From: Botryllus schlosseri
Lineage: Eukaryota
Length of the DNA stretch: 64,000 bases
Assembly (NCBI GenBank): GCA_051294905.1
Contig: CM119373.1
Span: 4,218,001 to 4,282,000 of the forward strand
Reading direction: 5' to 3'
Shown here: in pieces, positions 1 through 40,261 of the stretch
Position numbering within the stretch: position 1 is the first letter of the stretch
How the letters are laid out: every line of letters begins with the position of its first letter
Program-made: the position numbers and the translations under genes
The notes under the pieces: model-generated
Seen by the model: the letters and a program-made list of their open reading frames with translations, nothing else
Database searches by the model: none
What the model was told of the DNA's origin: nothing

Positions 1-1900
1 ATTTCGTCAGACATTTCATGATGTAACACCTTTAAAACCAACGCAGTTCTATACAGACTTTTGGCTAAATCTGTTTTTCCGTAGCGTAGCACGTACCTAT
101 ACATAGTCAACTTTAATAACGGATTTAGCATGTTAATAATCGACTTAGTTTTAAATAAAATACGGAATATAAACTAATCGAAAAATTCGGTAACCAATTT
201 CGCGTAGGCTATGCATGCATACAAATGAGGAAAGTTACATCAACGCGTGTTAAAGTAGCTGTATCGAGTTATCGAATGATTTTCTCCTTACATCAAAACA
301 ACTAGAATGTATAACTAAATTAAAAAACGTATCTAAATGAGCTCCAGGGCATTGTGATTATGCTGCATGCCAAATTTCATCACACATTTCATGATGGAAC
401 AACTTTAAAACTAACGCAGTTCTATAGCAACTTTTGCCTAAATCTGTTTTCGGTAGCGTGTACATATACATAGTCAGATTTAATAACAGAATTATCATGC
501 TAATATGTGACTCCTCACCTTGAAACTTGGTACGTAGTTGTAGGACATTGTGATTATGCAGCATACCAAATTTCTTCACGCATTTCATAATGGAACAACT
601 TTAAAACTAACGCGGTTCTACATCGACTTTTTGCGTACATCTGTTTTGCGTGGGGGCGTATAGCACGTACCTATACATAGTCAACTTTAACAACGGAATT
701 ACCATGCTTAACATTGAATCCCAACTCGAAACTTGATACGTAGTTGTAGGACATTCTGGCAATGCACCATGCTAAATTTCATCACACATCTAATGATGGA
801 ACACCTTTAAAACTAACGCAGTCGAATACCGACTTTTACGCATATCTGTTTTGCGTGAACATAGCATATACCTATACATAGTCAATTTTAATAGCAGAAT
901 TACCGTGTTAAACATTGAATTCCCACCTTGAAAGTTGGTACGCGGTTATAGGAGATTATAACAATGCACCATACCAAATCCCATCACACATTTCATGATG
1001 GAACAACTTTATAACTAACGCGGCTCTACATCGACTTTTTGCGTACATCTGTTTTGTGGGAGCGTATAGCACGTAGCCTACCCATACATAACCATCTTTA
1101 ATAACGGAATTACCATGCTTAACATTGAATCCCAACTCGATACTTGATACGTAGTTATAGGACATTATGGCAATTCACCATGCTAAATTTCATCACACAT
1201 CTAATGATGGAACACCTTTGAAACTATCGCAGTCGAATACCAACTTTTACGCATATCTGTTTTTCGTGAACATAGCATATACCCATACATAGTCAATTTT
1301 AATAACAGAATTAGCATGCTAAACATTAAATTCTCACCTTGAACGTTGATACGTGGTTGTAGGACATAATAACAATGCACCATACCAAATTTCATCAGAC
1401 ATTTCATGATGTAACACCTTTAAAACCAACGCAGTTCTATACAGACTTTTGGCTAAATCTGTTTTTCCGTAGCGTAGCACGTACCTATACATAGTCAACT
1501 TTAATAACGGATTTAGCATGTTAATAATCGACTCCCCACCTTGAAACTCGGTACGCAGTTGTAAGACATTATGACAATGCACCATGTCAAATTTTGTTAC
1601 GCATTTCATGATTGAACAACTTTAAAACTAACGCAGTTCCATACCGACTTTTGCGAGTGCGTAGCACGTACCTATAAGCATACTCAACTTTCATAGCGGA
1701 ATTACCGAGCTAAACATTGAATGCGCAACTTGAAGATTGGTTCACAGGTGTAGGGCAGTATGACAATGGAACACATCAAATTTCATCACACATTTCATGA
1801 TGGAACACCTTTAAAACTAACGCAGTTCTATACCAACTTCGCGTGAATCTGTTTGCGGGAGCGTAGCACGTACCTATGCGTGATCAACTTTAGTGATGGA
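1..1900 (-). repeat. Mirror copy of the same ~200-bp satellite array on the left palindrome arm
   Basis: Reverse complement of ~4690-6588, including the HOR junction (cgacttagttttaaataaaatacgg near 141). Confidence 0.95.
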
Positions 1901-1979
1901 ATTACATATGTAATTAAGTTTCAACACTTTTACAATGATTCGTCTTGCTTCCTATAACACCCCACTCGAGAAAATGCGT

Positions 1980-3265
1980 CGTAGGATATAGATGAAACTA
2001 GCACCACTCATCAAGACCGCTGAAAACAGTACATTTCAACATTTAGTAGCAGTAAATTTCTAGTAAAGTACAAGACGTGATGATTTCCGAGTGAGTTAAA
2101 AAGTAAGTATTGCAGGTATAGTTTACCTGAAAACCGAATACTCTGAAATAGAAGTAGATGCAGTGTAAATAGTTAATCACTTGATTAAGTTTAGTGCAAG
2201 CAGATAAAACCTATACTTGAGTAGTACAAAATGCACGAGTACTTCGCTATCGCCTCCCTCCACGTAATAAGTGTCTACGGTTTAAGACTGCTTTTACCGA
2301 TACTCGTCGGTTTCAGTTTTAGATAGAATTCGGAAACCAAATAATTTCATAAACATAAGCTAATTTAATGAATTTACTCGAATGTACTATGCCGCGCTGA
2401 TAAGATTAATTATAATATACTTATCATGTTACAGCGATTTTTCTAGCGTAGAAATCTTTAAAATGTAGTAAGCAGACCAAATGAAGATATTCGTTGAGCT
2501 GAATAAACATAAAAAATACTCTAGACTACTTTATCGGTACTTTACAGTTACAGTTTTAGATAAAATTTGTCCCTTTCACCTATAATTACAACTCCTCGCT
2601 ATCTAAACATGTTTAGAATATATTATTTGCGATGATACGAACCCGTGAAGTACTCAAGTTGCTTTTCGTAGGATATAGATGAAACTGACAACACTCACCA
2701 AGACCAGTGATCCACTGAAAAAAGTACATTGTAGCAGTAAAGTCCTACTAAAGTACAAGAAGTAATGATATCCCAGTTAGTTAAAAAGTAAGTATTGAGG
2801 TATAGTTTGCTCGAAAAAGCGAAAAACTCTGAAATAGAAGTAGATGCAGTGTAAATAGGTAATCACTTCATTAAGTATAGCGCAAGCAGGCCAAACCTAT
2901 ACTTAAGTACTGCAAATGTACAAGTACTTCGCTATGTTCTCCCTCCACGTAAAAAGTGACTAGGTTTTAGAGTACTTTATCGGTACTCGACAGTTTCAGT
3001 GTTAGATAAAATTTGGTAAGACTTTAAATTTTAAAGTAGTTTGAGCTTACGTTTGTATCACCCTGACAAGTAACATTATCAGACATGAAAATGATACTAT
3101 CACCGAATATAGAAGTTAACACGCGTCAATGTGCTTCGGAATTCACGAGAAATTGCTTACTAAGAGAAGTATATTGTTGTATACACAATAGTGGAGAGAA
3201 TATTTAAAATGTAGTAAGCAGGCCGATGGGTATTCGTTTAGTTGTATAGACATAAAAAACATTCC
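1980..3265 (+). repeat. Older ~690-bp direct duplication inside the palindrome arm (mirrored at ~3325-4610)
   Basis: cgtaggatatagatgaaact...ctctgaaatagaagtagatgcagtgtaaatag starts at ~1980 and again at ~2667. taaaatgtagtaagcag...cataaaaaa occurs at ~2459 and ~3205. The copies are clearly diverged. Confidence 0.85.
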
Positions 3266-4689
3266 CGCGCGCGTCTTAGTATTAGGTGGTAGGGTTAGGA
3301 AGTGTTTTGTTTAAGAGCGCGCGGGAATGTTTTTTATGTCTATACAACTAAACGAATACCCATCGGCCTGCTTACTACATTTTAAATATTCTCTCCACTA
3401 TTGTGTATACAACAATATACTTCTCTTAGTAAGCAATTTCTCGTGAATTCCGAAGCACATTGACGCGTGTTAACTTCTATATTCGGTGATAGTATCATTT
3501 TCATGTCTGATAATGTTACTTGTCAGGGTGATACAAACGTAAGCTCAAACTACTTTAAAATTTAAAGTCTTACCAAATTTTATCTAACACTGAAACTGTC
3601 GAGTACCGATAAAGTACTCTAAAACCTAGTCACTTTTTACGTGGAGGGAGAACATAGCGAAGTACTTGTACATTTGCAGTACTTAAGTATAGGTTTGGCC
3701 TGCTTGCGCTATACTTAATGAAGTGATTACCTATTTACACTGCATCTACTTCTATTTCAGAGTTTTTCGCTTTTTCGAGCAAACTATACCTCAATACTTA
3801 CTTTTTAACTAACTGGGATATCATTACTTCTTGTACTTTAGTAGGACTTTACTGCTACAATGTACTTTTTTCAGTGGATCACTGGTCTTGGTGAGTGTTG
3901 TCAGTTTCATCTATATCCTACGAAAAGCAACTTGAGTACTTCACGGGTTCGTATCATCGCAAATAATATATTCTAAACATGTTTAGATAGCGAGGAGTTG
4001 TAATTATAGGTGAAAGGGACAAATTTTATCTAAAACTGTAACTGTAAAGTACCGATAAAGTAGTCTAGAGTATTTTTTATGTTTATTCAGCTCAACGAAT
4101 ATCTTCATTTGGTCTGCTTACTACATTTTAAAGATTTCTACGCTAGAAAAATCGCTGTAACATGATAAGTATATTATAATTAATCTTATCAGCGCGGCAT
4201 AGTACATTCGAGTAAATTCATTAAATTAGCTTATGTTTATGAAATTATTTGGTTTCCGAATTCTATCTAAAACTGAAACCGACGAGTATCGGTAAAAGCA
4301 GTCTTAAACCGTAGACACTTATTACGTGGAGGGAGGCGATAGCGAAGTACTCGTGCATTTTGTACTACTCAAGTATAGGTTTTATCTGCTTGCACTAAAC
4401 TTAATCAAGTGATTAACTATTTACACTGCATCTACTTCTATTTCAGAGTATTCGGTTTTCAGGTAAACTATACCTGCAATACTTACTTTTTAACTCACTC
4501 GGAAATCATCACGTCTTGTACTTTACTAGAAATTTACTGCTACTAAATGTTGAAATGTACTGTTTTCAGCGGTCTTGATGAGTGGTGCTAGTTTCATCTA
4601 TATCCTACGACGCATTTTCTCGAGTGGGGTGTTATAGGAAGCAAGACGAATCATTGTAAAAGTGTTGAAACTTAATTACATATGTAATT

Positions 4690-7600
4690 CCATCACTAAA
4701 GTTGATCACGCATAGGTACGTGCTACGCTCCCGCAAACAGATTCACGCGAAGTTGGTATAGAACTGCGTTAGTTTTAAAGGTGTTCCATCATGAAATGTG
4801 TGATGAAATTTGATGTGTTCCATTGTCATACTGCCCTACACCTGTGAACCAATCTTCAAGTTGCGCATTCAATGTTTAGCTCGGTAATTCCGCTATGAAA
4901 GTTGAGTATGCATATAGGTACGTGCTACGCACTCGCAAAAGTCGGTATGGAACTGCGTTAGTTTTAAAGTTGTTCAATCATGAAATGCGTAACAAAATTT
5001 GACATGGTGCATTGTCATAATGTCTTACAACTGCGTACCGAGTTTCAAGGTGGGGAGTCGATTATTAACATGCTAAATCCGTTATTAAAGTTGACTATGT
5101 ATAGGTACGTGCTACGCTACGGAAAAACAGATTTAGCCAAAAGTCTGTATAGAACTGCGTTGGTTTTAAAGGTGTTACATCATGAAATGTCTGACGAAAT
5201 TTGGTATGGTGCATTGTTATTATGTCCTACAACCACGTATCAACGTTCAAGGTGAGAATTTAATGTTTAGCATGCTAATTCTGTTATTAAAATTGACTAT
5301 GTATGGGTATATGCTATGTTCACGAAAAACAGATATGCGTAAAAGTTGGTATTCGACTGCGATAGTTTCAAAGGTGTTCCATCATTAGATGTGTGATGAA
5401 ATTTAGCATGGTGAATTGCCATAATGTCCTATAACTACGTATCAAGTATCGAGTTGGGATTCAATGTTAAGCATGGTAATTCCGTTATTAAAGATGGTTA
5501 TGTATGGGTAGGCTACGTGCTATACGCTCCCACAAAACAGATGTACGCAAAAAGTCGATGTAGAGCCGCGTTAGTTATAAAGTTGTTCCATCATGAAATG
5601 TGTGATGGGATTTGGTATGGTGCATTGTTATAATCTCCTATAACCGCGTACCAACTTTCAAGGTGGGAATTCAATGTTTAACACGGTAATTCTGCTATTA
5701 AAATTGACTATGTATAGGTATATGCTATGTTCACGCAAAACAGATATGCGTAAAAGTCGGTATTCGACTGCGTTAGTTTTAAAGGTGTTCCATCATTAGA
5801 TGTGTGATGAAATTTAGCATGGTGCATTGCCATAATGTCCTACAACTACGTATCAAGTTTCGAGTTGGGATTCAATGTTAAGCATGGTAATTCCGTTGTT
5901 AAAGTTGACTATGTATAGGTACGTGCTATACGCCCCCACGCAAAACAGATGTACGCAAAAAGTCGATGTAGAACCGCGTTAGTTTTAAAGTTGTTCCATT
6001 ATGAAATGCGTGAAGAAATTTGGTATGCTGCATAATCACAATGTCCTACAACTACGTACCAAGTTTCAAGGTGAGGAGTCACATATTAGCATGATAATTC
6101 TGTTATTAAATCTGACTATGTATATGTACACGCTACCGAAAACAGATTTAGGCAAAAGTTGCTATAGAACTGCGTTAGTTTTAAAGTTGTTCCATCATGA
6201 AATGTGTGATGAAATTTGGTATGCAGCATAATCACAATGCCCTGGAGCTCATTTAGATACGTTTTTTAATTTAGTTATACATTCTAGTTGTTTTGATGTA
6301 AGGAGAAAATCATTCGATAACTCGATACAGCTACTTTAACACGCGTTGATGTAACTTTCCTCATTTGTATGCATGCATAGCCTACGCGAAATTGGTTACC
6401 GAATTTTTCGATTAGTTTATATTCCGTATTTTATTTAAAACTAAGTCGATTATTAACATGCTAAATCCGTTATTAAAGTTGACTATGTATAGGTACGTGC
6501 TACGCTACGGAAAAACAGATTTAGCCAAAAGTCTGTATAGAACTGCGTTGGTTTTAAAGGTGTTACATCATGAAATGTCTGACGAAATTTGGTATGGTGC
6601 ATTGTTATTATGTCCCACAACCGCGTTTCAACGTTCAAGGTGAGAATTTAATGTTTAGCATGCTAATTCTGTTATTAAAATTGACTATGTATGGGTATAT
6701 GCTATGTTCACGAAAAACAGATATGCGTAAAAGTTGGTATTCGACTGCGATAGTTTCAAAGGTGTTCCATCATTAGATGTGTGATGAAATTTAGCATGGT
6801 GAATTGCCATAATGTTCTATAACTACGTATCAAGTTTCGAGTTGGGATTCAATGTTAAGCATGGTAATTCCGTTATTAAAGTTGGCTATGTATGGGTAGG
6901 CTACGTGCTATACGCTCCCACAAAACAGATGTACGCAAAAAGTCGATGTAGAGCCGCGTTAGTTTTAAAGTTGTTCCATCATGAAATGTGTGATGGGATT
7001 TGGTATGGTGCATTGTTATAATCTCCTATAACCGCGTACCCACTTTCAAGGTGGGAATTCAATGTTTAACACGGTAATTCTGCTATTAAAATTGACTATG
7101 TATAGGTATATGCTATGTTCACGCAAAACAGATATGCGTAAAAGTCGGTATTCGACTGCGTTAGTTTTAAAGGTGTTCCATCATTAGATGTGTGATGAAA
7201 TTTAGCATGGTGCATTACCATAATGTCCTACAACTACGTATCAAGTTTCGAGTTGGGATTCAATGTTAAGCATGGTAATTCCGTTGTTAAAGTTGACTAT
7301 GTATAGGTACGTGCTATACGCCCCCCACGCAAAACAGATGTACGCAAAAAGTCGATGTAGAACCGCGTTAGTTTTAAAGTTGTTCCATTATGAAATGCGT
7401 GAGGAAATTTGGTATGCTGCATAATCACAATGTCCTACAACTACGTACCAAGTTTCAAGGTGAGGAGTCACATATTAGCATGATAATTCTGTTATTAAAT
7501 CTGACTATGTATATGTACACGCTACCGAAAACAGATTTAGGCAAAAGTTGCTATAGAACTGCGTTAGTTTTAAAGTTGTTCCATCATGAAATGTGTGATG

Positions 7601-7830
7601 AAATTTGGTATGCAGCATAATCACAATGCCCTGGAGCTCATTTAGATACGTTTTTTAATTTAGTTATACATTCTAGTTGTTTTGATGTAAGGAGAAAATC
7701 ATTCGATAACTCGATACAGCTACTTTAACACGCGTTGATGTAACTTTCCTCATTTGTATGCATGCATAGCCTACGCGAAATTGGTTACCGAATTTTTCGA
7801 TTAGTTTATATTCCGTATTTTATTTAAAAC
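4690..7830 (+). repeat. Satellite array: ~190-210 bp monomers, 411-bp dimers, 1388-bp higher-order unit in two copies (~5057-6444, ~6445-7830)
   Basis: A catcatgaaatgtgtgatgaaattt-like motif recurs at ~4787, 4976, 5178, 5380, 5589, 5791, 5996 and 6193. Near-identical ORFs are offset by 1388-1389 bp (5182/6570, 5424/6812, 6001/7390). Confidence 0.95.
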
Positions 7831-10800
7831 TGAAACTGTTAAGTATTACTTAAAGTGTTATAAAATGTGAAAAAGTATACGTAGAATTATTATTATGTCA
7901 TGAACAAGTAGTTTACAAATTCATACGATTTTTCTTGTTGCGTTCCGGGATATAATGTAATTTTTCGCTCTTTTTTATTTTTTATTTTTTCAATAAAATT
8001 AGTATTCATTTTACAAAAAACGTCGTGTAAAGATAAAGTACTTGAACACTAAACCCGTAACACAGTGGCGCAATAGCCCAGATCAGTCCAAGCTTAGGAG
8101 AGTAGATGACTTCTGCAGTGCCATTCAGTGCTCCACCGCCGATCCAAGATGCTGCATATATGTCAAACATACACGCGGTCAATATCAGTCTATTATACTG
8201 AGTTTTGGCATCGGTTTCAATAACCTGTCATTGTGCAAATTCCTAATGGTCTTAGTATGAACCGACATGCATTCGACTTATGGAAAAATGTGTCGCACAC
8301 TATTTCACCGAGATTACAACCCTTTCACGGTTCACAACTTGATATATCAACTTCACAGGGTAGTTCGGATTCTCAGGTAGACTTGAATCGTGATCCGGAT
8401 CTCGGAATATAGTAAAATCAGGGTATGTAGTTTAATTACTCACTCACTACTCTATATGTTGGTGGTGGTCATACCCTGCAAACTTTTTTTTTTTTGCTGC
8501 GAACGTAGTGTTTCACCTTACATCAGTTGGTTCAATGTATGTACCGGGTTGTGAAAACTGTCGCTGTTTTGACTATGTGTCACAATCAATACTAAATACG
8601 AGAATTCGTTACTCGTCGAAACGCCGCAGTCAGACATCGTTAACAGCGATTCCATGTATGGCAATCTTGAGTTCAATTGCGGTTTGTGATGTTAACCAAG
8701 CGGCTGTGTTTCTGCGGTGTGAAGACTGAATTCATGTTGTTTCCCCGCAGGAGTGCGATGTCTATTTCACACCTAGAGCAATTATAAAACGCATCTTCGA
8801 AACTTAATGGAAAATGCGTGAGCTCGACTAACTTTTTACGTAGTTCGAAATCGCTACTTCTATGCATTAATTCAAAGTATTTGTCAGTCATCGTAACACC
8901 GCTCATATGGCGCGCTATCTATTTATTTCAGAGATAACGAATTACTCCTGCTTTTATCAGAGGATACTTTTCTAGGATTTGCCTACTAACAGTACTTAGT
9001 TTAGATTAATAAAAGTATAGTGATTGAAAATAGATCACTGGAATATAGTTTACAGAAAACTCCACAATTCTATGTGACGTCCTTGCATACCAACAACCTT
9101 CGAACTATTCGCCGCCTCATAAACACTTGAGTAGGCCTACATCTGATGCGTGAGGGGAAAACATAGTTAAATTTTCATATGCATTTAGTTTCCAACTCTG
9201 AAAGCAAGCTTAGTCTATGATCATTCGCGTACCATTAGTATTCATTTTACAAAAACGTCGTGTAAAGGTAAAGTACTTGTACATTTCGGAGTACTCAAGT
9301 ATCAGTTTTGTCAGCTTATTATATGCTCAGTATATTATACGTCACAAATTGTGGAGCATTTATGTGGGTGCTCCGGGGTGCTCTTCATTGAGTGTTCGTG
9401 TTGGGTGATAAGTTTAATTTGCAAAATTAGCGTGTTCAAATCAGGTCTGTCGCCAACATAGTGATGTCGCATTAGCCCTAAATACACATAATAGAATATA
9501 AAGGAAAAGTATCATCTAACGTATAATGAATGTTATCTATTTCTCGGAAGCAAGTTATTATCAAAACATAGTGGTCAAAATTATCGCAGAGCAATATCGA
9601 TTTGCGTAAATTCCGTTATGCGTCTGACTACGTTACTAGGGATTATGTAGTTAGTTAAGGAATTAGGAGTCCTATCTTCCCAATCGGTATGGAACAACAT
9701 CAAAATCATCACAAAGCAATATCGACAAAATCTGCTTACTTTTATAACTTTATATTTTGTGAAGTAGAGAGTAGTTTAAGGTTATGTTTGTCTAACCTTG
9801 GCGAGTGCTATTGTCACACTCGATCACCATCTTCAAATCATGGCTATCTCAATGATGTTGACTAAATTTTCGGCTTCGGAACGTGTTAATTAGACCTAAT
9901 CGTTTTAACGCTGGGGTTCGCGTACAGGCATCGATAGAGTTTGTATAAATAAAGCCCTGCGAATCGCACGCCTACGGCTATAGTTCATTCGATTATTTTC
10001 ACCTTGGGATTCGCGTATATGCTACTAAGCTGTTACGACTTTAGAAAATTCTACAAGACTATTCGGAACGCGCACATGCGAGTGATTTGTTTCCGTAGCT
10101 CCGAACTGGAGAATCGCTTGCCTGCGTCTAATGAAAATAAGTCGTAAAATGTGGAGGCTGCAGAGACAGTAACTTGTATACATAAAATCAAGTTTAAAAA
10201 TATGGACGGATGAGTTATCTCTGAGCAATAGAGTAATATAACCGCCTATAGTTTAGTGGGGTATTGCTATAATGTATATCCAAACAATCGTTGCAGACTC
10301 TGAATGTTACCTAGGTCCTTATCACAAAAAATCATGCATCAGAAGCGTAGGGGTTCATATTATCAAGTCGCAGCGCTCAAAATCACATTTTATATTAAGT
10401 AATTAGTGATGATGTGTAGAATTTTGATATTAATAATATTATCCGGAGAATATAACCTTACATAGACATCATAGTTTTCGCATTTATGTATAATCTGAAT
10501 AGGAATTTAAATACATAGTCCTAAATACACATAATAGAAAATCTGTCGATTCTAGCCAAGGTAAGTTTTGACGTAGCAATCTTAAGTCGTAAAATGTGGA
10601 AACTGCAGAAACCGTAACTTGTACACATAAAATCAAGTTTAAAAAATATGGACGGATGATATTAGTCCTAAATACACATAATACAATATCTGAGAAAAGT
10701 ATCAAGATGCGGAAATCAATGCAGCGATGATATAGCAATGGGTGGATGATGTGGCAATAGGCGTGCTATAGGTGCGGCAATGGGCGGATGATGTGGCAAT

Positions 10801-11781
10801 GTAGGCGTGGCAATTAAGGCGACGTGGCCTTCTGGGATTGGTCTGCGTATATTTGACCAAACCTCACTACTCTCATGTCCAATTTCCCCGTCAATCTGTG
10901 GTTCAAAACTCACACAAATATTCGCTACAATAGCCAACAGCAGAGTGTCCAATTATCCATTCTTTTCCCACATATTATCATATCTCATGAAGTTACAATG
11001 CGTGCTGGAGTGTGGCATATCGTAACGTCCCTCCAAGACAAGCTATATATTTTTGAATTACAATGATGGTTATGTCAAATAGATATTGCGTGATGATCAT
11101 CCGACCAAAGGGTGGAAAATTATTTCCAAGTTTAACAAATACTTAACGATATTCATATGACTTCTACATCCTCAGAGTCTACGATTTTAAAACTCTATTG
11201 GTTGTTTACGGAGTGGAAGTTACGATAAGCAAATTTAATTTGTAACGCGACAGCCGTCGAATAGAATTCGTTTTCATGATATTTAGATTGAAAAAATTAT
11301 CATTAATATTACTTTCATTCATATGCGCGTTACCCAACTTTGTTTTCTTCAAATAGATGTTGACCCGAATGGGGGAGTCATGAATCACAATTTGAGATAT
11401 GAACATTTGAACACAAACAGTGAGCGATTTTATGAGATATGCAATCAATTAGACAAATCGAAACTAGGATTATTGTCATCGTTCTGACAAAACTGTCAAA
11501 GTATAGAAAAAGTATGGAAGTATGGAAAAACGTTCCGTACAATACAAATTTCCATAGCATACCATACTTGGACTTATCCATATTCCATACCGAAATGCCG
11601 TTCCATACCATACCATACTTCCATACCATTCCGTACCATGCCCTGTAGACAAGTACTGTCCCAACATAACAATGCATTCGACTCAGTCGGAATATTAATC
11701 CGCAGGAATAGTCAAAATCATGTGCTGAGATGCGATTCGAAACCCGTTCTCTCCGTCATATATTGAAGATGACCACTTAAG

Positions 11782-12298
11782 CAGGGGTGGGCGAACTACG
11801 GCCCGCAACACCGTTCTGTGCGGCCCGCGAGAGTCTAAAGAAACTTGTTTAAAATATTGATCAAAAGTGTACTAAAATCGAATTATTGCAGGGACTTGAT
11901 CAAACTTTTTGTTAGTATATTTCACCATGATAATTCTAGGGCAGTGGTTCGCAAACTGGGGGCGTGAAAGCGTCTGAAGGGAGGCGCGAAGCTGAGCCCA
12001 AATGAAACAATTTTTCGCGCTCCGCGCGATTCATATTCATTTCATAATTATCGCTATATATTTAGTAACCTTCGTAACCTTCTACGCCATCAAACTATCT
12101 GTTGGGTTGCATTTACGACAAGACCATAAGGGTGGCGCACCATCATAGGGGGGTCGTGTCTTCAAAAGTTTCGGAGCCACTCTTCTAAGGTAAATACTTC
12201 CTGTTTTATTTGTGTCATCCCAGTTTTATAAAGTGCGGCCCGCAAATGGATTCAGATGTTGAATGCAGCCCGCGAGCTCAAAAGTTTGCCCACCCCTG
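11782..12298. mobile_element. Composite hAT-type MITE (caggggtgggc TIR) containing a nested MITE at 11942-12182
   Basis: TIRs caggggtgggcgaact / agtttgcccacccctg. The inner element cagtggttcgcaaa...gagccactc is flanked by ttctaggg/ttctaagg. Homologous to 37949-39045 and 62032-63178 in opposite orientation. Confidence 0.85.
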
Positions 12299-12448
12299 AC
12301 TTAAACGCTCACAGCAACGTTACTACCATGATTTAATTTTATGTTCTGGAAAGTGAGTAAAGGTACTCATTAGATTTCGTGTTTAACTATTTTTGAACTA
12401 TCTTAAACTATTCCTGAATGTAGAAGGGTATTTTGATAGATTATAGGT

Positions 12449-13148
12449 CAGTGCTGGCCAACCTTTTCGGTCAAAGGGCAACATTCAATTGCCGAAGAAT
12501 TGCGCGGTTCACTAGCCGCGCCAAGCGTGAAAATTTTCGGAGTTTATAGCTCAATAATATTATTACTTGAGTATATTGCGGGTCTGCTGCGTATCGCTAT
12601 GGGCTCAGTTTGCAAGGAGGGGGCTATTCGGCGCCTGGAGATATCGATATCAAAAGCTTCGGCCAACATGCGTCAATCATTTTGAGCCCAGGTTTCATCG
12701 TTGACGGTCTTTCTGCGGACGCAAACAAAAGGTCGCATTCTGGACGACACATTCTCTTGTAATTGCGAATATAGTTTGACTCAATCTGGTACATCAGGCG
12801 TTCTTTCATTCTCAGGAGGGGTAACAATATTAAAAGCAAAAATCGAGTGACAACATATAGCGGGAAGCGGGAAGAAATTTTTTACTTTAGCTTAATCTAC
12901 CGCAGAATATTCTGCTTTATTGTAATGTACGAAGCCCTACCAAAAATATGACTGACCCATGGATCTGCCAATGCGTTAGAACTGATATTTTAGTCGTTAC
13001 ATCCCAAGTATTGCGGCCAGACTAGTCAAATTTGGGTTGGCCTTGCAAGTTCACATTCTCGGCAATCCATTTTGATAATATTACTCATTTCGAAAATTAG
13101 CCTACCTCGCGGGTAACTCGAAACCTTGTCGCGGGTTGGCCGCCCCTG
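12449..13148. mobile_element. Non-autonomous hAT-type element
   Basis: TIRs cagtgctggccaacc / ggttggccgcccctg; 8-bp TSD ttataggt/tcataggt. Confidence 0.8.
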
Positions 13149-13498
13149 TCATAGGTAAAATCGCCTAGTATGGCGTCATATACCTATACCAGCAAATATG
13201 GTATCGCCAAGTACGGTAGACGAATCTTACACCAATAAAGATTGTTCCTTATTAGCACGGTTTGGCAGTAGCACAAATTTCCAATCCACCCTCGTAAATT
13301 CTAAATCGAGATTTGAATCCGACTTGCGATACCGTGGTAATTTCATATCCCGAATTGATGAAATTTAATTTCTCGTATCACAGTCGGACTAAGTCTCTAC
13401 TAAAGTACTGAGGCCGGCTCCTATTGCCGACCATACATGAACGAAGCTGTGATTACCACTCTCGCTTAAAATCGCGACTCCCAATACATGGTATATAT

Positions 13499-14427
13499 CA
13501 GTGGTCGGGAACCTTTGTTGTCCGAAGAGCCATATTTGCCCTATTTTTCAATCTCAACTCCCAAAGTGCCATACTTGCCAATCAACCGTTACGTCACAAT
13601 TGAAAATCATGACGTCATGATAGCACTAATTCGAACTCACTACATGGGATTCCTCGTGTGCGCCTTATTTTCATGTAAAAGCTGGTATTTATTGTACGAA
13701 AATAAAGCTCGCAACGACAGATAAGGCATAAAACGGGCCAGGCCTCGCCATTGATAACGCAATTCATCGTAACTAGCGTAGAATTTATTATAACTGATAT
13801 CAATCGAATGTGACTGTCACTGATTCTGAAAATCTAAATACTTATCGACTTCTCAATTCTCAAAGTATTCGGCGGTAACATAACGTTGCGCTACACGCCT
13901 ACATTTTATCGCCGGTACTACACAGATCTATACTTACCAATGAAAAATGTGATTATGAATAGCTATGACGTTGTTTGATATTCGAGTTTGTGACTGTGAC
14001 ATCCACAGCAGTTAATTTCGCGCCGTAGATCAGGAAAACGATGCGTATTTGTAAACTGCGTTTTGAAATGGGCGTCGTCATGTATGCTATGCTCTTTGAT
14101 TAGTCAACGTATGGCACAGTTCAAGGTTTCGAGTCGGGTGAATAGAATTCGCGAGTGATATTGACCGCCGGCATGACAGTAACTTAAATTTGATGATTTT
14201 GCAAAGAGAGGGTCCGAGCCCCTAAACCTGAAGACGACATTGTCTTTACCTCTCCAAGATATGTTTATACTGCCACGAGAATAATTATATTGGTCATGAT
14301 GAAAATTTACCAACAAATCGCTGCAATAATGATCAATTCAGTACAAAAATAAATATTTGTCAAAGAGCCATATTTTATACCCAAAAAAGCCATACATGGC
14401 TCGCGAGCCATAGGTTCCAGACCACTG
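13499..14427. mobile_element. Non-autonomous hAT-type element
   Basis: TIRs cagtggtcgggaacct / aggttccagaccactg; perfect 8-bp TSD gtatatat. Confidence 0.88.
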
Positions 14428-15399
14428 GTATATATACTCAGAAATTACTGGAATGTCGGAAAAATTTGGCTGGAACTCAGTCTCTCGAATCCATTAGTTC
14501 TAACTGCTAGTACAACTGCTCTCTGCAGCTAAACTGAAATGAGCTATGAAACGTTATCTCAGTGTCACAGGTACCGATCTTTCAAATTATCAGCTATCAG
14601 TCACACATATTATGCTTCTTGACCATAAAAGATTCTAAATCTGGTGACGCACGTATATATTTAAAATATGTAATATTGCTGTTTAGTTTGGCGTGCATCA
14701 ACCAATCACTGTAGTATTCGAGTCGTCATTTCTTCGCAATTAACTCTAAAACTGGTCCTAATGGCGCCACGATAACAGCCACGCATATTGTGACGTATCA
14801 AGTAGAAAATTTTTCAGACAAAACCTTTCATACGGAAAAAATTTTATTGACAAATTCACGGAAAATCAGACTTGTGAAACCGATCTCGGTAAATTAGTAA
14901 ATAATGCCAAATAGTATAGTTAAAATCGGAATGGATCGTGATAGAAAATTGCAATGCTACAGAAGCATCAATGTCATAAGGAGACCACCAATAACACCCC
15001 TGTTGTTCTTGAAACTGAATAAAGTTCATGAATAAGATCAATTACCTCGACAGTTTGTCTATAATTTGTTGAAGAGATATTGCTCTAGTTTTTTTGTTAA
15101 TTATAAGTAAAGCGTTTTTGTTTGACCTGAAAAAAGGAAGATTTCGACCAGAAAAATTGAAATTCAACATTTTTTGAGAATAAAAACTTAATGTTGACAT
15201 AAGTGTGCCCTTATGTAAATCGATTAGGTGTTTCCGCACATAATGTTAGAATTGAAAGTGAAAAGTAAAAAGAAAACATAAAATGACAATAAAAGATGAA
15301 AATGTAATGTGACGGCATGCGAGGTCTTTATATCAGATCCTTGTCCAGTATCCTCGATAGCTGACTAAATCACATTGCAGCAGTAAGAATACTTTATGG

Positions 15400-16196
15400 C
15401 AGTGGTTCTCAACCATTGGTCCACGGACCTCTCGGTGTCCGTGGAACATTTTCAGGGGGTCCGCAAACACTCCAAATTTCCCAAAATGGTTGTTAAACCT
15501 AATTTGTATTTTTCTAAATTAGAGAAATCACGAGGTAGTATCGCTCCGTAACTGCTAAAACTTCGAGACCCACATAAACAGAATGGCCATCTGAGATGAA
15601 ATATTCTACTGTGCAAACTTAGTGTAATTTCGAATAGCCTAAACATATCGCTGTTTCGAAAGGCTTTGTTGGGTTGGAAAAATCCACTTTTTACTGTGAT
15701 ATAGGCCTACATAACCGATATTCCGGAATAACTTCAAGATGAGCTGCTAGACGTTAGGCTGGACGTTATATGTTCATTAAAAATATGTTTCCTAATTATG
15801 GAGCCATAACTGTTGCGACCTGCGATCATCCCCGAAGGTGTCGTCGGAAGCGGTAAGCGTTATTATTACATTCGCCATCATCTTTGTGGAAATGGATGTT
15901 CGGCAATCCTTCATATCAAATAGAAGGCGTGGATTTTTGAGACTTGACCGTGTATTTCAAGAAATGCAGCTACAAAATTCCCTTTGAAATAATAAAAGTC
16001 GTCGAAATGTCTACATAAATAGCGTGATGGTAATTTCAAGAATAGTCATTTTATCGCTGTTCATCACTGCCTTACAGTTGAGATTCACATAAGACAGATA
16101 ACGGTTGTACGATAATGGAGCTAAATTTGTACAAAGATTTAGGGGGTCCACGGGGGTCCGTATCGGTGCAAAAGGGGTCCGCGAAGACAACCGCTG
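15400..16196 (+). mobile_element. hAT (Charlie-like) deletion derivative with a decayed transposase C-terminal fragment
   Basis: cagtggttctcaacc...caaccgctg with perfect TSD ctttatgg. ~15880-15925 reads LCGNGCSAILHIK, resembling the hAT motif LCExGFSxL..IK. Shares sequence with 26470-26640 (inverted). Confidence 0.8.
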
Positions 16197-16455
16197 CTTT
16201 ATGGTATACCTGTAGTAAACAAGGTAGTTGGCCGATATATATTATAGGATTAGCCTTGCTGGCTACGTAACCTGGAAGTCCAATTCAAGGTGACAGAGTC
16301 AACTACAACATGTATTATCATTATACAAGGGAAATCATATATGATGAAATTGTCACTGAACGGATTTCGGAAAGCCCTGCTTCAAAATCCGATTCTTAGC
16401 ATTGTTCCGCTGGTTTACGATTAACTTCCTTTTACGCGTACATTGCTTCATTGTT

Positions 16456-17082
16456 TTAATAAGTTGATAAGTTGCCAATTACGATTGAATTCGACTTGTT
16501 GAAAATGACAATCGAATCGTTGGCGCAACTGTAGCTTGATCGATGTAAGATATCAATTTCGGAGGAATTAAGAGCTCTGTTCCAAAGCCGAAATCCTTCT
16601 ATGTCACCCCGAAAACCTTGATGAGGATTTTTGGGTTTAATGGACCAGTTCGTGCCTTTATCCTGATTCAAATTCTGTCCCAAGATAAGATCTCCGCCTC
16701 CAGGTATTACATGCTGGGAAATGTTGACGCTGTTTACGGTAGCGTTGATGTACACGCTCATGAATGTGTCTGATTTCACGACGCACTAATGTGTGCGATA
16801 CCGTGAGCAGTAATTACTGAAACTTCCTTGCACGGCTACGAGACGCGAGTTTACACTGATTTTAGTTCCGCTTTGCGGTGCCAATACGACGAAGGTGTTG
16901 CAGTTCTTCGGTCGGACTTGTAATGCTCACAATCGCTTGCTCTTTTGCGAATGATTGATTCGACTTTCGCACCCAGACACATGTCGTGAAGGATGTAATA
17001 GCTGGCCCTGGCAATGTGCCGTTACATTTTACGTAATGCATATGTTCCTCGTACGGAAAGCTAAAGCCAGATTCGTCGCACG
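16456..17082 (-). pseudogene. Terminal exon encoding a pentraxin (CRP/PTX-like) domain, disrupted by a frameshift (~16905) and an in-frame TAG (16786-16788)
   Basis: Acceptor ttccttcctggtttcag. Translation: CDESGFSFP...SFTTCVWVR...AIVS; H*CVV (pentraxin HxCxTW position); VIPGGGDLILGQ; FRGDIEGFRLWNRALNSSEI. The two ORF halves differ in frame. Confidence 0.85.
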
Positions 17083-17607
17083 CTGAAACCAGGAAGGAAA
17101 TGTCTATCGATTCACTCATCTCATGTCACGGTATAGCCGAAGAAAAATATTCCAACCCGGTAATATTTATTTCTCACTCGGCATTGGCATGACCTCTTCC
17201 CCTATGAAAATTATAAGCCCTATGGAATGAGAAAGGATTTTGATATCTATTAAATAGGGCTTAAACCTTGTGTGTCAACAATTTAGAAATTTTCAGCGCC
17301 AATACAATGTACTGGACCGCCCGCCTGATACTGGAACTGGAATTATCATGAAATTCGTGTATTCTTGGCGATGACCTAATATGATGTATTTACAGGTTCA
17401 GTTCAGCGCTGCCCCAAAGAGATCATTGGTCACCGGTCTGCAAATATACCAATAGATTAATAACTCAAGTCAGATTTCGGCATTTAGCCATCGACTTTTC
17501 ATATACCTTATTTTAATATAGTAATTTAGCTAAATATAATTCAACGGGTAATAATATAAAGCTATAGCTTGATGATAATAGCGGATAAACGGCGAAGCTA
17601 TTCTTAC

Positions 17608-17688
17608 TTGAGTGTTTAGTTTCCAGACCATTCGTTGTCATGGCGATATCAGGCATGTCGAAAGCGATCTTGTCCAGTTGCTTTGTTG
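17608..17688 (-). CDS. Candidate internal exon of the pentraxin gene (TKQLDKIAFDMPDIAMTTNGLETKHS)
   Basis: ag...gtaaga boundaries, 81 bp, phase 1 to phase 1, in frame with the exons on both sides. Confidence 0.5.
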
Positions 17689-17868
17689 CTTGAAAATCGC
17701 AATATAAAATCGAAATTTCAATTATCTAATTCAACATCAACAGTTATATTATTTATGCTACGTATGCCTGCGACTATGCAGCTTCTTGATGAAATTTGTA
17801 CAATTTTCTGGCATTCTGCCGTAAAATCAAAGCTTCTAGTGAAATAAAGTACTCTATCGATGCTCTAC

Positions 17869-17944
17869 CTGACGGTCGCTGACTTGCTTTGTTGGCAACC
17901 CGTTTCTTCAAGTCGGCCAGGATATCATTAATTCTACTGTCACC
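17869..17944 (-). CDS. Candidate internal exon of the pentraxin gene (GDSRINDILADLKKRVANKASQRPS), coiled-coil-like
   Basis: Acceptor gctttttcag, donor gtagag, 76 bp, phase 0 to phase 1. Confidence 0.55.
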
Positions 17945-18298
17945 CTGAAAAAGCACATTTAATATTTCGATTGCCCTCCTTTCGATGTAAGCTACTCATA
18001 TACGATAGACGCTGTGCAGCTATAAGATTCAAAACTACCTATACCTAAATGTATATACCATGGGTGGGCAAAGTGCGGCTTTTTCGGCCTCGATTGTGGC
18101 TCTTAAATGATCACACATGCGCTTCACGATTTTGCTAGAGATGATCACCCTAATCTTAAATTGATGCATTTTATCGCGTATAAACAATATGTGTATTGTT
18201 TTCGTGATGATTTACGCAGAACTCGTAAAATCTTTGGGATGGTGGCATTACATGGTTAGAAATGAGCAATTGAACTCTCGAATCGAGTTCATATAAAC

Positions 18299-20246
18299 CA
18301 GTGGTTCTTAACCTTTTTTCATCCAGTGCCCCCTTTCGAAAATTTTCGAGCTCCAGCGCCCCCCACTTCATATTGTAGGGACTGTAATAATGACAATGGG
18401 TGAGAGGGAGGGCCGTAACAGCACTTCGTCAGCCTCCCTAAAAACGATTGTCCTAGGCACCCATAGCGTGATAAACCAAACTCATGAGGCTTCGCCCCCC
18501 AAGAACCCCGTCGCGTGATTTCGAGGGTCATCATCTTTACGTGGCCTGGTCGACCTAGGAGCCAATATTTTCTATAACGCACGGATGAAATAGGTTTTAA
18601 ATGCATATATATGTCTGTATAAACTTTTTATCCTCCCAGCCCACGTAATCAGATTTACCAGTAGCGCTGAATGAACTGTTGTATTAGAAAATGAAGGCCA
18701 CGCAATAAATAATTGAACATATTCGGGCGTACCCGTTGGTACAATTAAACTGTTACATGTTATTTTGTTACCTCTCGTCAGCTATAGGTAAAAGATATTG
18801 AAACGCATAAACGTCTTGAACTAAAGTAAGCACACGATTCACGATTGGTATTTTGTCACTGGCAAATCATTTTTTCTGATGGATGTAATTTGTCCTATTG
18901 GGTGCAGATTGCGACGACATGATAATTCGGCACGAGCGATTTAGCACCTATGGAGAACGAGACTTATATACATCGAAGTTTACGCTCACCATAAGGGCAA
19001 TGCTCTTCGGCTAAGGTTTTCTCGCTGGAGATCTTTTTGACACACTTCTCGGAGTCCCATATTCACCGGAACTTCATGTCTTCGTGCATCGAGGCGTGGT
19101 AATGCCCGGCGCCGAAATGCCTCTTTCTATTTGCTATAACTATGCTTATTCTTCCGTGGGGGAGTCGTCAAAACATGATGTTTAAATTATTTTCATTCCC
19201 GAAATAATTTAGGGCACCCTTCGAGCTAACCGATTGGGGGTTTGGGTTGCAGCAGTTTTGGTCTTGGTAAGATGTCAAAGTTCAGTCGGTCTTTTTGGGA
19301 CTTTGGTATTGGAAATATTCCGCGCTCTAATCGCGCTCGAGGACCAGTCGTCTATAATAAACCGTATAATAATTATGTGTGGTGTATTCAGGGTCAAATC
19401 CAGGTTGTTATAACAACAATCGGGTACGGTCTCATACCCTGTGGCTCGAACCCTCCCGAATTAACATCGGCGATTGGCAATACGGGGGAAATTAAGGGTA
19501 TTGGATTTTATCTTAGTGCTTTGTGTAACTATAACTAAGTCAACTAAGACTGGGATGCATATATCTGCTCTCAATGAATTTAGTACTGTATACCCAGTTA
19601 TTAATTTTACCATGAATGTATTCCAAACAAAGCAACTCATATTATGTAACGTTCATGTGAGGTTGTGAACAACAACACGAGATAGTATCATCCTTTATGA
19701 TACGATGAAGAAATATTCTGATGATTTAATTTTGTAGCTCTCAAACCTATTTCATGTACAAGGGGCTGTCACTATCAAAAGTGACATACAGTGCCTCCTT
19801 CTTCGATTTTCACACGCTGTGCGCTACGGGATATAATACCTAATGCGAAACATTTTGTTGAAAATAACCCTAGCAGGCGTTACGGCAGTGTTTTAACATA
19901 ACGGGAATTTGGCGATCTAAAAGTACGCGCAATTCGTTTTATAATAATTATTATAACCCATTATAGTCCACTACATTTATGAAAACATATGTAGCAAACA
20001 TCGTCACGTAGCGCAACCACAAATTTCGGTATTTGACATGTTTTGTGGAACGTTAAATTGTTCTGAATACTCATTAAGGATATGTCATACTACCACATCA
20101 TCTACGGCGGAGCCATTTTTCTTCAGCGCCTCCTTATCGCCCCCCTGAGCCTAGCACCCCCCATATCGCCCCCTGAGCGTTTCCGCCCCCTTCAAAATCG
20201 CCAGCGCCCCTTGTGGGGGCGCTGGTGGCAAGGTTAAAAACCACTG
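18299..20246. mobile_element. hAT-type element containing a nested element at ~18408-19266
   Basis: TIRs cagtggttcttaacctt / aaggttaaaaaccactg; perfect TSD atataaac. The inner element is homologous to 51781-53046 (gggccgtaacagcacttcgtcag start) with TSD gtgagagg/gtaagatg. Confidence 0.88.
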
Positions 20247-21872
20247 ATATAAACGTTTCACCGGCTACAATGGATGTCTGGTCATCAATCAATCAATAAT
20301 AAATCATTGTGTTCAACAATCGACTTGATTATTAATTACGCCAGCGCAGGTCACAATCACTTCCCGACTAGCAATGGTGGATACAGCTATTCCGTTTGTA
20401 TTGTAAAGGGCTAATTCCATTATAATTTAACAGGGGCTGTAATGCATACCCTCAGAATTGTCCAATATTTACAAATGTTATTCTTTTTTGAATTCCAAGT
20501 TTATTAAAAAAAAAAATTGAAAAATGTTCAGCGGTTCAAAAGATATTGCGATTTAAAATCCTCTCGTCACTAGGTGGCGCTACTTTCAAAAATCTTTGAA
20601 ATCGATATTTTCCGCTCAAATGATGGTAGAGAACCAATCAAAATGTCCAATTAACCAATTCTGGGGCCAAGGAATTCAATAAAACCAACTGTTTCGCCCT
20701 AAAATCAATGAAAAAAAGTTACGGATGAAAGAAAAAATGGTGGGACGGGCTTGAAAATGTCTGTAGGATACGGCCTACACAAAAAAAATTATTGTGAAAT
20801 GTGCTTTTAAGGAGTATGGTTGATAAAAAGCTTGATTTTAAATTTCCCATTTATTCCACCGTGAAATATGCATTACATAAAAATTTCATGGTCCCGACCC
20901 ATATCCCTGCTCACCGTAAATACTATTATCACCAGTCAGATATATCAATCCAATGTAAATGTTTCTTTTAGTCTACTACGTTTGGGATACAACAATATCT
21001 TTTGATTATATCACAGACCGGAGGTCACGAATTAACAACATACACTAAAGGAAAACAGGATACCAGACGTTATAATTTTGAATTACGTGCCCCCCAGCTC
21101 TACAGGTAAATCTGAACATCGGGGTAGAGAAAGGATTAAAAATTAATAATAATAAAATGCGATTACCAATATTATTGACGAGACTCAAACTTCAACTTGA
21201 AAATATCACCCTATGAGGGCCAAAGACCAACGTTTGGACTGGGGGACGAGTTGCTGTTTTGGCCCTGAGTCTAGCTACAACCTCCGCTAACATGATATAT
21301 ATTATATAAGCCCATGGCTATGACGGCAGGTCCCAATGTTGAGTAAAGAATTGTGAAATGAGGATTGGCGCCCGTTTCAAGAAGAGTCATATGAGAATAA
21401 GATTTTCATTCATAAAATTCTGCATTCAACTTAATACAGATAATGCACTGCAAGCTGCCGTTACGAGAAACGGCAAAAACGGCTCGGTTATGATGCAGCT
21501 GTTGATTTTCAATGCTTCGTTGTGGAAACCGTAATATTTTATTTGACGAGTACAAAATTTCAAATCTTTGTTCTGTGTACGTACGTATACTAGATAGGCT
21601 TACCGCTCGCCAAGCAGCATCGGTCAAACTGCGTTTAACTATATTACTATAAGCATAACCAAACATCAATACACAAGTTACTATTTTAAACTAGGCAGAG
21701 TGGTGATTAATTATCCTGCTGCGAGGTACTGGCGTGTGAAACGTTTTGATAACCTGATATACAGTACGGCGGGTGTTCTTACGATCACACTAATGTACGA
21801 ACATCGGATATATCTATTTGCTGCGGATACTTCTTACGCAATGACTAGCAAAGCTAATAGGCTACTTCTGAC

Positions 21873-27291: not shown

Positions 27292-28143
27292 CTGAAATAT
27301 AGACTCTCCTTCTTCAATGTCGAGTATTGACTTTCTGTGTGACAGTTTTGTTACCACTACCACGCTTTGCTACAACGTCAAGTAGTAATAATATCATCAT
27401 CATTTTTTAATATTATTTATATTTAAATCAGAATAAACTGGTAAGTACATGCACAAATCGGGGGGAAACCTGCTCTTCAAGGATGACCAGTTGACGAAAT
27501 TGAACTACATCAATGGAATTTTGGATAATGATACTCCTGCCATCCTACGCTTTATATGAAAAGTTGGCAAGTGTTTGCGTTTTGGAGGTAAATGAGATTA
27601 TATAATTGAAATTGAAGTTAATAATGGCTTTGGTGGACTATTTCTATACATCAATTCAAGTGCAGTTTAATCCCGTGGTGCAGTGAAAGTATTCGTAGGA
27701 ATACGCACACTTAAACATTGATTGATGAGTAAAACGCCTTTGTTGAAGTTTTGCCCATTGGCTATGATTTGTAACAAGATACTTTGGATTAGCGGTTCTT
27801 GACCATGTTTCTTCGAGTACATGAATTCATCTATATTCAGATTGTTTTATTCATATTACGCCAAATCGTGGATATTATTGGTGAAAGGAACACTGTGACA
27901 AAAGAGACTGCATTTCCCTGACGCTGATTTCTCGATGATTCCATTGCATTGTGTGTCATATACGGCCGGGAAAATCGATTGCCTGAGTGATTAGGTTCTG
28001 AATCGCGGGCTCCGCGTCGAGTCGAGTATTTAAGTGTTACTCGTCATATCGCCATATCAGAAAATTTATATCTCATTGCTCACAAGGGGGCGACTGGGGG
28101 TGATAGGGGTGCGAAAATGTTGAAACTTCCAGTGATATATAAC

Positions 28144-30237
28144 AAGCGGTGGTTAAAGTAGTCGAGAAAGCTACAAAAGTAGAAGTAGAAGTAGCGACGA
28201 AAATTCCTGCTCAAGTACAAGTAGAAGTGCTTCTTTCGTGAGCAACCTAAAACTTCTTGAAGTAGAAGTAGAATTGACTAACTTTAAATCTACTGAAGTA
28301 AGTAACTAGTTTCAAAAACCATCGTAATTCGTTCGCATGGATTGCCAAAAGCTGCGAATTGAGCTATGCGAAAGGGGCAAAGCTTGATTCATATTGATGC
28401 ATACCAGGAGGTATCCGAATTCCGACAGCATAAGCATTCATCCGCATAATGGGATGAAAATGACAGCATTAATATGGAAATGCGATACTGATCCTCTGTT
28501 TAATCGAACAGTCCTTTTTAGAAAATATCATGGTATGGCGCGCGCCCCCATATTATAAGGCCCGTGGTTTAGTCGAAGATCAATATGGAGAAGTTGTATT
28601 GGATACGGTGTAAACACTTTGAGCGATTAGTAAACGTTAATTAAAAAAATAGTGAATCGTAAATATGTCATAATGTGTAGCTTTGTTTTCGGAAATTAAA
28701 GGCATTACTACACTTGCTTTTATCCTTCAACATGTATGTTTTCCAGGCAAAAGAACTGATACTAATTAGAACTCAAAGTATGGTACTAGGAATCGAAATA
28801 TAAATACTACTTTTAAAAGCGGAAAATGTATTTCACGTTTTTAGTCCAGAAAGTGTCAAAGGTGGTATGTGAAAACAGCCGTAAAACTGAAAAAAAAAGT
28901 CGGAGTCCACTTTTCTTGATTAGGACAAGACATGGACCGCTAGATTACGATATGATAAGTAAATGCTAGATTGTGAAACATCAGTTTCAAATGTCATGAT
29001 GAGTCATGCATACTGTGATGAAATATTTGAAATGGGCGACAATGCGGTGTGAACGGAACTACGCAAGCCGTTATCTAACTTATATTCTCCGATAATTTCG
29101 TGAAATCATATAAGTCACTCTATATCCACTGTGCGCCAGTGTTGGGATGACTCGAGTCATGACTTGACTCGAGTCAGACTCGAGTCACCTTTTTCGTATG
29201 ACTTGACTTGACTCGAGTCATTTTGCTAAAATGACTTGACTTGACTTGACTCGGCGTATCAGAAATGTGGATTGACTCGTGACTCGGGGCAAAATTCACG
29301 AGTCAATTTCAAGTCATCAAGTAATCGGTGTCAATAAAAATCACTGTACCTTACGTATGTACGGATTTTTCGCGCAACGTTGATGTAACCCGTGAGAGCG
29401 ACCAATCATTCAATGATCGTGCGTTTTACTGAGACTCTATTGTTCTCTCACAAATATTGACCGCAAACGAAGTTATCGAAGCTTACAGCCTATATGTTGT
29501 CATAAACTATAGTATAGTATATGTATAGTAACGTAATTTAATGACAAAATGTCTGTAAACTGTAAACTGAGGCTATGCAATAGCTTACGTAGTTTGGCAG
29601 TTCTAGGTATATGTGAGCGATACAGCGCCTTACTTGCGTCTATATTTAACTCTATATTCGTTCATCGGTTCAAAATCAATGACCACCCAATCTGTATTTC
29701 AGACAGCTAGCAAAATGCAATGACGTAATCATATTCCTCACATCTCCAAAAGGTAATTTCACTTGAATTGTGACTTGACTCGTGACTTGACTTGACTTGA
29801 CTCGACTTGACTCGAGTCACCTCCAAAAATCGAGTGACTTGACTTGACTGGAGTCAAATTTGAAAATCGATTGACTTGACTTGACTCAAGTCAAAATGTC
29901 CAATGACTCGAAATGACTCGTGACTCGAAGGTAGTGACTTGATCCCAACACTGCTGTGCGCGAAGCGCGACGTAAATTCTGGGATTTGCTCAACTTTGAT
30001 GGAAATTGAATGTTGATACTCCTCGAAATTCCTCAGGCACTCTTCCTGATTGGAGGATTAAACTACTTCTACTTAAAAAAACTGAAAATAGCGAAAAGTA
30101 AGTAAGTAGATCAAAAATATTACGAAGTAGAAGTAGAAGTAGCCGGAAATTAGATCTACTTGAGTAAGTACCCAAGCAGCGGAAAACTACTCGAGTACTT
30201 CAAAAAAATAGAAGTACTTCGTTACTGACCACCTCTG
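28144..30237. mobile_element. hAT-type element (cagaggtggtca TIR, agtaga subterminal repeats) in FReD intron 4
   Basis: Perfect TSD tatataac; homologous to 30825-32029 in opposite orientation. Confidence 0.88.
29137..29953. mobile_element. Nested hAT-type element with gactt/gactc subterminal repeats
   Basis: TIRs cagtgttgggat / atcccaacactg; perfect TSD ctgtgcgc. The sister host copy has the single empty site (gcgcacag, ~31044). Confidence 0.92.
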
Positions 30238-30824
30238 TATATAACATAGTCAAAATGTACGTGAAGACAGCTTATTCTGCATATGACGCGATAAAAGTGA
30301 ACTCAACGGAAAGTCGCCGCGGAAACCGGTTTACCGAGCACCTACCACTTCAGAAAAATGCCTTTTATTTAGCAAATTAATCAGTGATCAGTTGGGCGAT
30401 ATTTTCAACCTAAAAACGGAAAAATGTTGATATTTTTTTCCTGAAAAAACTTAATTTGCCAAAATTTTGCCCTCGTGTATGTAAATTAGACGTTTTCGCA
30501 CGCAGTGTCAGAAATGTACTACTTATCTTCATTTGTGGTTGTAACTGTCTGTCCTTACGAAGTAGTTTGGCCTGAAAAAAACTTTTTGGATTGCAACACA
30601 GACAAATTTATACATGAAAATACTTTATCACAACGGAATCTGAACCTATGAAGAATTCCAGTAGTTACATCACGCATTTTGGTTGAAATAATTAATGTTT
30701 GTTGTAGTACAACAACGAAAGATACTTCGCTACATTCTCGGGTAGAAAGTGTAAGTCCTTACTAAGTAGCTTGCCAAGATTTGAGAAAGAACGTTCAGCA
30801 GCAGCAGTTGCTGGCTGGCAACAC

Positions 30825-40145: not shown

Positions 40146-40261
40146 ATCGGTTCTTGCCCATATTTTGGTATATCGCTCATTCTAGTCCGTGACGCACCTG
40201 GCCTTACAGGCGAAAAGCGTCACTCATCTTTTCATCAATAATAATAATAATAATAATAATA

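Follow-up and report, generated by a model that had tools for sequence, protein, structure and literature searches.

The 68-bp feature at 3261–3328 of the window (the whole stretch of 64,000 nucleotides that was analysed) is best explained as the middle of a mobile element of about 15 kb that lacks genes, is almost entirely palindromic and probably depends on Maverick/Polinton elements, a reading to which we assign a probability of roughly 0.6. The locus is a palindrome, its centre is present in many copies and new mutations are mirrored in both of its arms. The short centre appears to be shared by a subfamily of roughly 90–220 copies. Long near-perfect palindromes are as a rule fragile and do not persist when their spacer is short; this one is common to a large family and was found in several samples. 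The telomere-based account of the centre that was put forward in the earlier note is not supported.

Organization of the palindrome and its ends

The palindrome consists of two inverted arms (1–3272 and 3317–6588) joined by a spacer of 44 nt. The arms are complementary with 4 mismatches per 3,272 bp, a length that is a minimum since the left arm is cut by the window start. The mismatched pairs (369/6220, 756/5833, 1394/5195 and 1677/4912) are confined to the satellite of the outer part, the innermost 1,595 bp of both arms being free of mismatches. The arms are closed by a 9-bp GC clamp, in which CCCGCGCGC (3264–3272) pairs with GCGCGCGGG (3317–3325). Inside the clamp a bulged G (3273) is followed by a 5-bp stem, TCTTA/TAAGA, which carries a 33-nt loop (3279–3311). 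This arrangement of clamp, one-base bulge and stem had been described in the earlier note and is borne out both by the comparison of the arms and by folding of the 108-nt centre, which yields the same structure at −38.8 kcal/mol (z −13.4). The chance of a 5-bp stem resuming past one bulge or mismatch is ~0.005. G/C runs of at least 9 occur 38 times across the window, and the clamp pair are the sole ones within 1–10873. The description of the surroundings as very AT-rich holds in direction but not in degree, as the inner arm has 34.5% GC compared with 39.8% for 8000–64000. Derivation of the clamp and stem from 38425–38452 was considered and rejected; the likeness covers 26 nt without extending further, and the sister copy near 62480 shows it less strongly.

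Table 1. Features of the palindromic element, in window coordinates
Feature	Position	Strand	Remarks
Left arm	1–3272	−	Mirrors 3317–6588; cut by the window start
Left GC clamp, CCCGCGCGC	3264–3272	+	Innermost part of the left arm; also occurs in the family in a form 2 nt shorter
Spacer, 44 nt	3273–3316	.	Bulged G, 5-bp stem, 33-nt loop; common to the family
Degenerate telomere-like G-rich tract	3282–3299	+	Four G-runs, without exact TTAGGG
Right GC clamp, GCGCGCGGG	3317–3325	+	
Inner right arm, modular	3317–4683	+	Old internal duplication, 3570–3923 and 4253–4610, 81%
202-bp satellite-like array	4684–7831	+	1,388-bp tandem duplication inside
Outer right arm (putative extent)	7832–10871	+	Modules in common with the inner arm or with each other up to 10704
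Candidate right terminus, (ACT)2	10866–10871, possibly to 10873	+	

The two copies of the tandem duplication within the array (5056–6443 and 6444–7831) are ~1% apart, with 12 differences and an end gap. The left arm carries the alleles of the inner copy (5056–6443), and at the three arm mismatches that fall inside the duplication it is the left arm alone that deviates from both right-arm copies. Beyond the array, modules of the inner arm recur at 7811–7865, 9271–9317 and 9770–9819. Other modules link parts of the outer arm to one another (7998 with 9234, 9471 with 10516 and 10661, and 10138 with 10583), the last of them ending at 10704. We infer the extent of the outer right arm, the alignment of the public runs being limited to 3243–4690. 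After the last module come 19-bp repeats at 10726–10801. The region 10700–10871, in which these subterminal repeats are G+C-richer, lies just inside the candidate end and contains what we take to be CCAAT-like and GC-box-like motifs.

The candidate right terminus is an ACTACT located 162 nt past the last module; within 170 nt of that module such a hexamer is expected by chance with a probability of ~0.04. A rival ACTACT is found at 8446–8451. The same 11-mer occurs at 8443–8453 and at 10863–10873, 2.4 kb apart, and the pair possibly represents a nested or duplicated terminus. The 20-nt terminus motif has no match in metagenome contigs; an 18-nt version is present in one viral contig (L001), with no similarity past the 18 bases, and is taken as a chance match. 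Up to the candidate end the length of the arm comes to 7,555 bp, or 6,167 bp without the tandem duplication. A symmetric element would measure 15,154 bp, with its left end ~4.28 kb upstream of the window start.

No stop-to-stop frame of at least 120 aa is present in 1–10871. Of the 22 short frames listed in 7832–11400, 11 were compared with Pfam and PHROGs; the sole matches, both below threshold (E 0.046 and 0.071), belonged to a single outer-arm frame, for which no longer homologue was found. Genes for polymerase B, integrase, ATPase, protease or capsid were not recognised in the element from its frames, Pfam or PHROGs, and Rfam and ARAGORN gave zero matches in the window. The arm of the element may hold captured MITE-like pieces, judging from sequence likeness. 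An older inverted pair of ~970 bp (78%) spans 28142–32031, and the stretch 30116–30235, between its two members, resembles the inner-arm module 4329–4452 (67%, E 3e-6).

Copy number and joint change of the arms

A search of public runs with 3240–9500 listed 24 runs, 19 with the stretch or part of it (10 studies). Four runs from four studies, X1, X18, X15 and X5, were aligned to 3243–4690. X1 is possibly the source sample of the window and as such not independent; X18 and X15 come from other studies, and X18 bears the same organism label as X1 with a separate sample and study. The centre, which the earlier note had proposed to seek in other individuals, is found with family-type variation in three of the four runs, the spacer being covered in X1, X18 and X15 (three studies). 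The summed contig depth is 21,757 at 3303 and 20,615 at 3308 in X1, and 13,915 and 10,165 at the same positions in X18. Both positions carry a T>G variant of the loop, that at 3303 amounting to 3% in X1 and 36% in X18, and that at 3308 to 10% and 23%. A 2-nt deletion in the clamp at 3266 accounts for a depth of 4,848 out of 21,992 in X1 (22%, in 22 contigs) and 772 out of 21,225 in X18 (4%); by hand count it leaves a spacer that is still 44 nt, with the bulge on the opposite side. The spacer depth in X15 is 14.2, with a 320-nt contig that crosses from arm through spacer to arm. In X5 the spacer is uncovered at a nearby depth of ~15, which is uninformative on its presence.

The high depth, together with variants of intermediate frequency in separate studies, identifies the centre as a real multi-copy feature of a family. 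The earlier note held that many dispersed, TSD-flanked copies of the same centre would favour a transposon over a break; read depth confirms the many copies, dispersal and TSDs aside. In X1 the depth of the arm next to the centre, 40,579 at 3339, is ~2 times that of the spacer, which is the ratio expected if this spacer is common to most copies of the arm, and in X18 the ratio is 3–4, not 2. The centre would be present in ~88–217 copies per haploid genome, a figure that is rough since summed contig depth does not equal copy number and since it assumes that the depth of 195–240 at the two rarest alleles represents the two arms of this copy. Among the 23 best supported of 289 loose ends, none falls at 3272 or 3317. 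Short reads are blind to a flip-flop of the spacer, as the two strands of one and the same arm–spacer–arm molecule already present it in both orientations. An exact scan with a 21-nt motif of the loop gave no match in viral contigs or JGI metagenome contigs.

X15 and X5, a run labelled as another organism and a seawater metagenome, show the element at a depth of ~14–70, and the same element reaches tens of thousands in the organism of X1 and X18. The low depth would fit traces of DNA from a repeat that is very abundant.

The two arms change together. Of 75 variable sites on 3243–4690, 40 were listed and 7 of these were checked, chosen by their high non-reference share. At 3526, 3819 and 4113 the letter of the window makes up 1.1%, 0.8% and 0.3% of the X1 depth and has zero depth in X18, X15 and X5. 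The mirror positions 3063, 2770 and 2476 bear the complements of these alleles. The three near-private alleles are young mutations that are present in both arms, and the arms are therefore being kept alike. Polishing of the assembly could in principle equalise the arms; four arm differences survive all the same. The mirrored mutations offer a direct handle on how the element moves, whether through a self-paired hairpin intermediate or with frequent conversion between the arms.

Probable Polinton dependence and the foldback alternative

With a candidate (ACT)2 right end and a predicted size within the Polinton range, the element would resemble Maverick/Polinton transposons, for which (AGT)2//(ACT)2 with 6-bp TSDs is described as the commonest vertebrate end and (AG)3//(CT)3 is also defined (PMC8097293). 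Unlike these, it is gene-less, and its inverted repeat constitutes the whole element rather than a short terminal repeat. It is not an autonomous Polinton. In the model of Polinton replication (Kapitonov and Jurka; bioRxiv 10.64898/2026.07.28.741278), the opposing terminal repeats of the excised genome anneal and a protein-primed polymerase copies it. A wholly palindromic strand would snap into a perfect substrate for such copying.

The founder of the subfamily may have been a single strand of an ancestral element that folded back on the imperfect repeat formed by the clamp, the bulge and the 5-bp stem. Outward copying from this fold-back would have replaced or deleted a longer middle, the subfamily being founded once. 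The clamp and 5-bp stem provide a short central inverted repeat, as in break-seeded palindromes, and inverted repeats of 5–9 bp are reported to seed large palindromes in repair-deficient yeast (PMC7999016). A plausible founding event of the family is priming by fold-back at an inverted repeat that is short and imperfect. The current spread would be that of a non-autonomous dependant of Maverick/Polinton elements, in which a single strand, once displaced, would fold into a hairpin of full length. The paired ends of the hairpin could rebuild the terminal origin for the protein-primed polymerase of the helper, and the same ends could double as the substrate for its integrase. Mismatch correction in the hairpin, or conversion from arm to arm, would hold the arms alike. 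The 44-nt spacer may be long enough for the integrated palindrome to be tolerable; in eukaryotic cells a 12-bp spacer frequently stalled replication forks and a 52-bp spacer did not (PMC7999016).

If the Polinton link is true, the family would consist of naturally occurring snap-back elements that depend on a virus-like transposon, and the point of fold-back would be marked by the short-centre subfamily. Replication of that transposon is known from models, not from observation. Snap-back or copy-back defective viral genomes are helper-dependent and self-complementary, with both termini kept and genes lost. In contrast to such genomes, the present element is integrated, heritable and amplified in an animal genome, and its helper dependence is putative. 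No report of tunicate elements that are palindromic throughout and have Polinton ends was found in the literature covered, which included PMC6431247 and bioRxiv 10.1101/2024.01.15.575659 but few subscription papers and not Repbase.

A rather unlikely alternative is a classical foldback transposon, related to Mutator or P elements, whose TIRs are very long and contain satellite and whose middle has shrunk to 44 nt. Besides Tetris, which is considered below, foldback elements include FB, Galileo and Tm1. An element of this kind would move by cut and paste, and its arms would be homogenised by gene conversion at the locus. The multi-copy centre fits such a transposon, and the element shows those foldback features that can be tested here, namely long modular arms with tandem repeats, a non-coding middle and many copies. 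Its succession of an inner domain, ~200-bp tandem repeats, a flanking domain and a non-coding middle is also that of Tetris from Drosophila virilis, a non-autonomous element with long modular inverted arms that is described as having 8–10-bp TSDs and ~220-bp repeats within TIRs whose length reaches 1,735 bp (PMC4079207). However, the arms, which appear to be ~7.5 kb long, are four times the length of the longest Tetris TIR, the middle is only 44 nt, and the candidate (ACT)2 end would be of the Maverick type. The arms also co-mutate, and the young private alleles mirrored at three sites would demand frequent conversion in a classical foldback element.

The loop tract and accounts based on breakage

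Exact TTAGGG is absent from the loop and is found in 6 copies elsewhere in the window, on the + strand. Scored against (TTAGGG)n the loop reaches 27, a value reached in 39 of 20,000 loop shuffles, and five other telomere units score 11–21. Of 2,908 tiles of the window, two reach 27, the loop itself and 56497, which is inside the element at 55874–56635. The TTAGG-like character ascribed to the loop in the earlier note is real but limited; the likeness is above chance, but it includes no exact unit and is not placed at the fold point. As 17 non-telomeric bases (3300–3316) stand between the tract and the right arm, the tract is not at the folding 3′ end, and fold-back of a 3′ end extended by telomerase would be expected to leave the repeat at the fold point. 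The opposite-strand reading of the tract is C-rich, which suggests that it could not be a telomerase product. De novo telomere addition is recognised by exact units at a broken 3′ end, and none is found in the loop. The motif has another ready source, because an unrelated interspersed element (55947–56560) carries such tracts. The tract is most likely inherited sequence that was trapped in the loop, and not a telomerase product made at the site.

The element at 55874–56635 is small, with imperfect inverted ends of 15-bp units and three CCTAACCC motifs. It equals the loop in telomere-likeness, yet has no homology to it: the best score between the two is 22, which lies inside the range of 58 tiles of the window and is matched or surpassed by tiles elsewhere, and a homologous origin of the loop was rejected. 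The proposal that the centre is the core of a foldback element, in so far as it concerns a multi-copy palindromic centre, is supported; the tie to this small element, which formed part of the same proposal, does not extend beyond the level of motifs.

It is improbable that the founder of the family arose from a break with a short, error-prone telomerase addition and then looped, leaving a scar that all copies inherited. The better fit of the tract to (TTAGGG)n than to the five other units, and its rarity in shuffles, would agree with such a scar, but the lack of an exact unit, the 17 unrelated bases before the right arm and the equally telomere-like tracts of the unrelated interspersed element all argue against it. 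A long shot, when taken as a whole, is also the reading in which the short centre is a functional part, kept by selection, of a hairpin replicon that depends on Polintons, with a loop that mimics a telomere. In such a replicon the displaced strand would begin its snap-back at the GC clamp. The loop, being single-stranded, would bind a telomere-type protein or fold into a two-tier quadruplex, and in this way the tip of the hairpin would escape the hairpin-opening nucleases of the host. The 15-kb palindrome would replicate extrachromosomally and re-integrate, its arms being corrected against each other. A two-tier quadruplex is predicted in the 68-mer with a gain of 0.19 kcal/mol; the isolated loop shows no predicted gain, and 15 comparable two-tier motifs occur in the window. 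With so small a gain and so common a class of motif, the quadruplex was dismissed as unsupported.

It is very improbable that the locus records a one-off break followed by addition of telomere repeats and fold-back, or the replicated hairpin end of a chromosome. The near-perfect arms and the short imperfect central inverted repeat would suit the products of fold-back (PMC7999016). Against this, the depth is 10,000–21,000 with many variants of intermediate frequency in two samples, and at least 4.19 Mb of contig lies upstream of the window. The abortive telomere addition envisaged in the earlier note is not supported, given the multi-copy, variable centre and the absence of exact TTAGGG, and the window does not lie near a chromosome end on its upstream side. 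The rDNA palindrome of Tetrahymena, in which 42-bp M-repeats surround a 28-bp non-palindromic centre (PMC5182062), resembles the present element as a giant palindrome with a short asymmetric centre (28 bp there, 44 here) and a fold-back origin, which is putative in our case. It is a programmed, single-locus and gene-bearing minichromosome, whereas the present element is multi-copy, gene-less and chromosomal; a single locus with a non-palindromic progenitor, as in Tetrahymena, is at odds with the multi-copy centre. The available text of PMC5182062 makes no mention of telomeric sequence in the rDNA spacer.

An artefact is hardly credible, whether it be an adapter, a chimera from amplification or an assembly error caused by fold-back of long reads. 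Although the arms match at 99.9% and the left one is truncated at the window start, the spacer occurs with natural variants in contigs from three of the four runs, from different studies, one X15 contig bridges it and the arms differ at 4 sites. Neither the library adapter raised in the earlier note, nor a fold-back of reads or assembly, nor a single healed break could give such depth and such variants, and all three are rejected for the centre.

Other repeats are found outside the element. A 486-aa open frame at 40193–41653 (+) has a weak match to zf-RVT (E 0.00065, under the curated cut-off) and probably represents the 3′ portion of a non-LTR retrotransposon. A dispersed MITE-like family is represented at 11780–12066, 38546–39052 and 62671–63185, with members that are 75–78% alike. 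Finally, a 1-kb repeat is present in two inverted copies, at 33212–34207 and 51781–52798, which are 84% alike and lie 18 kb apart.
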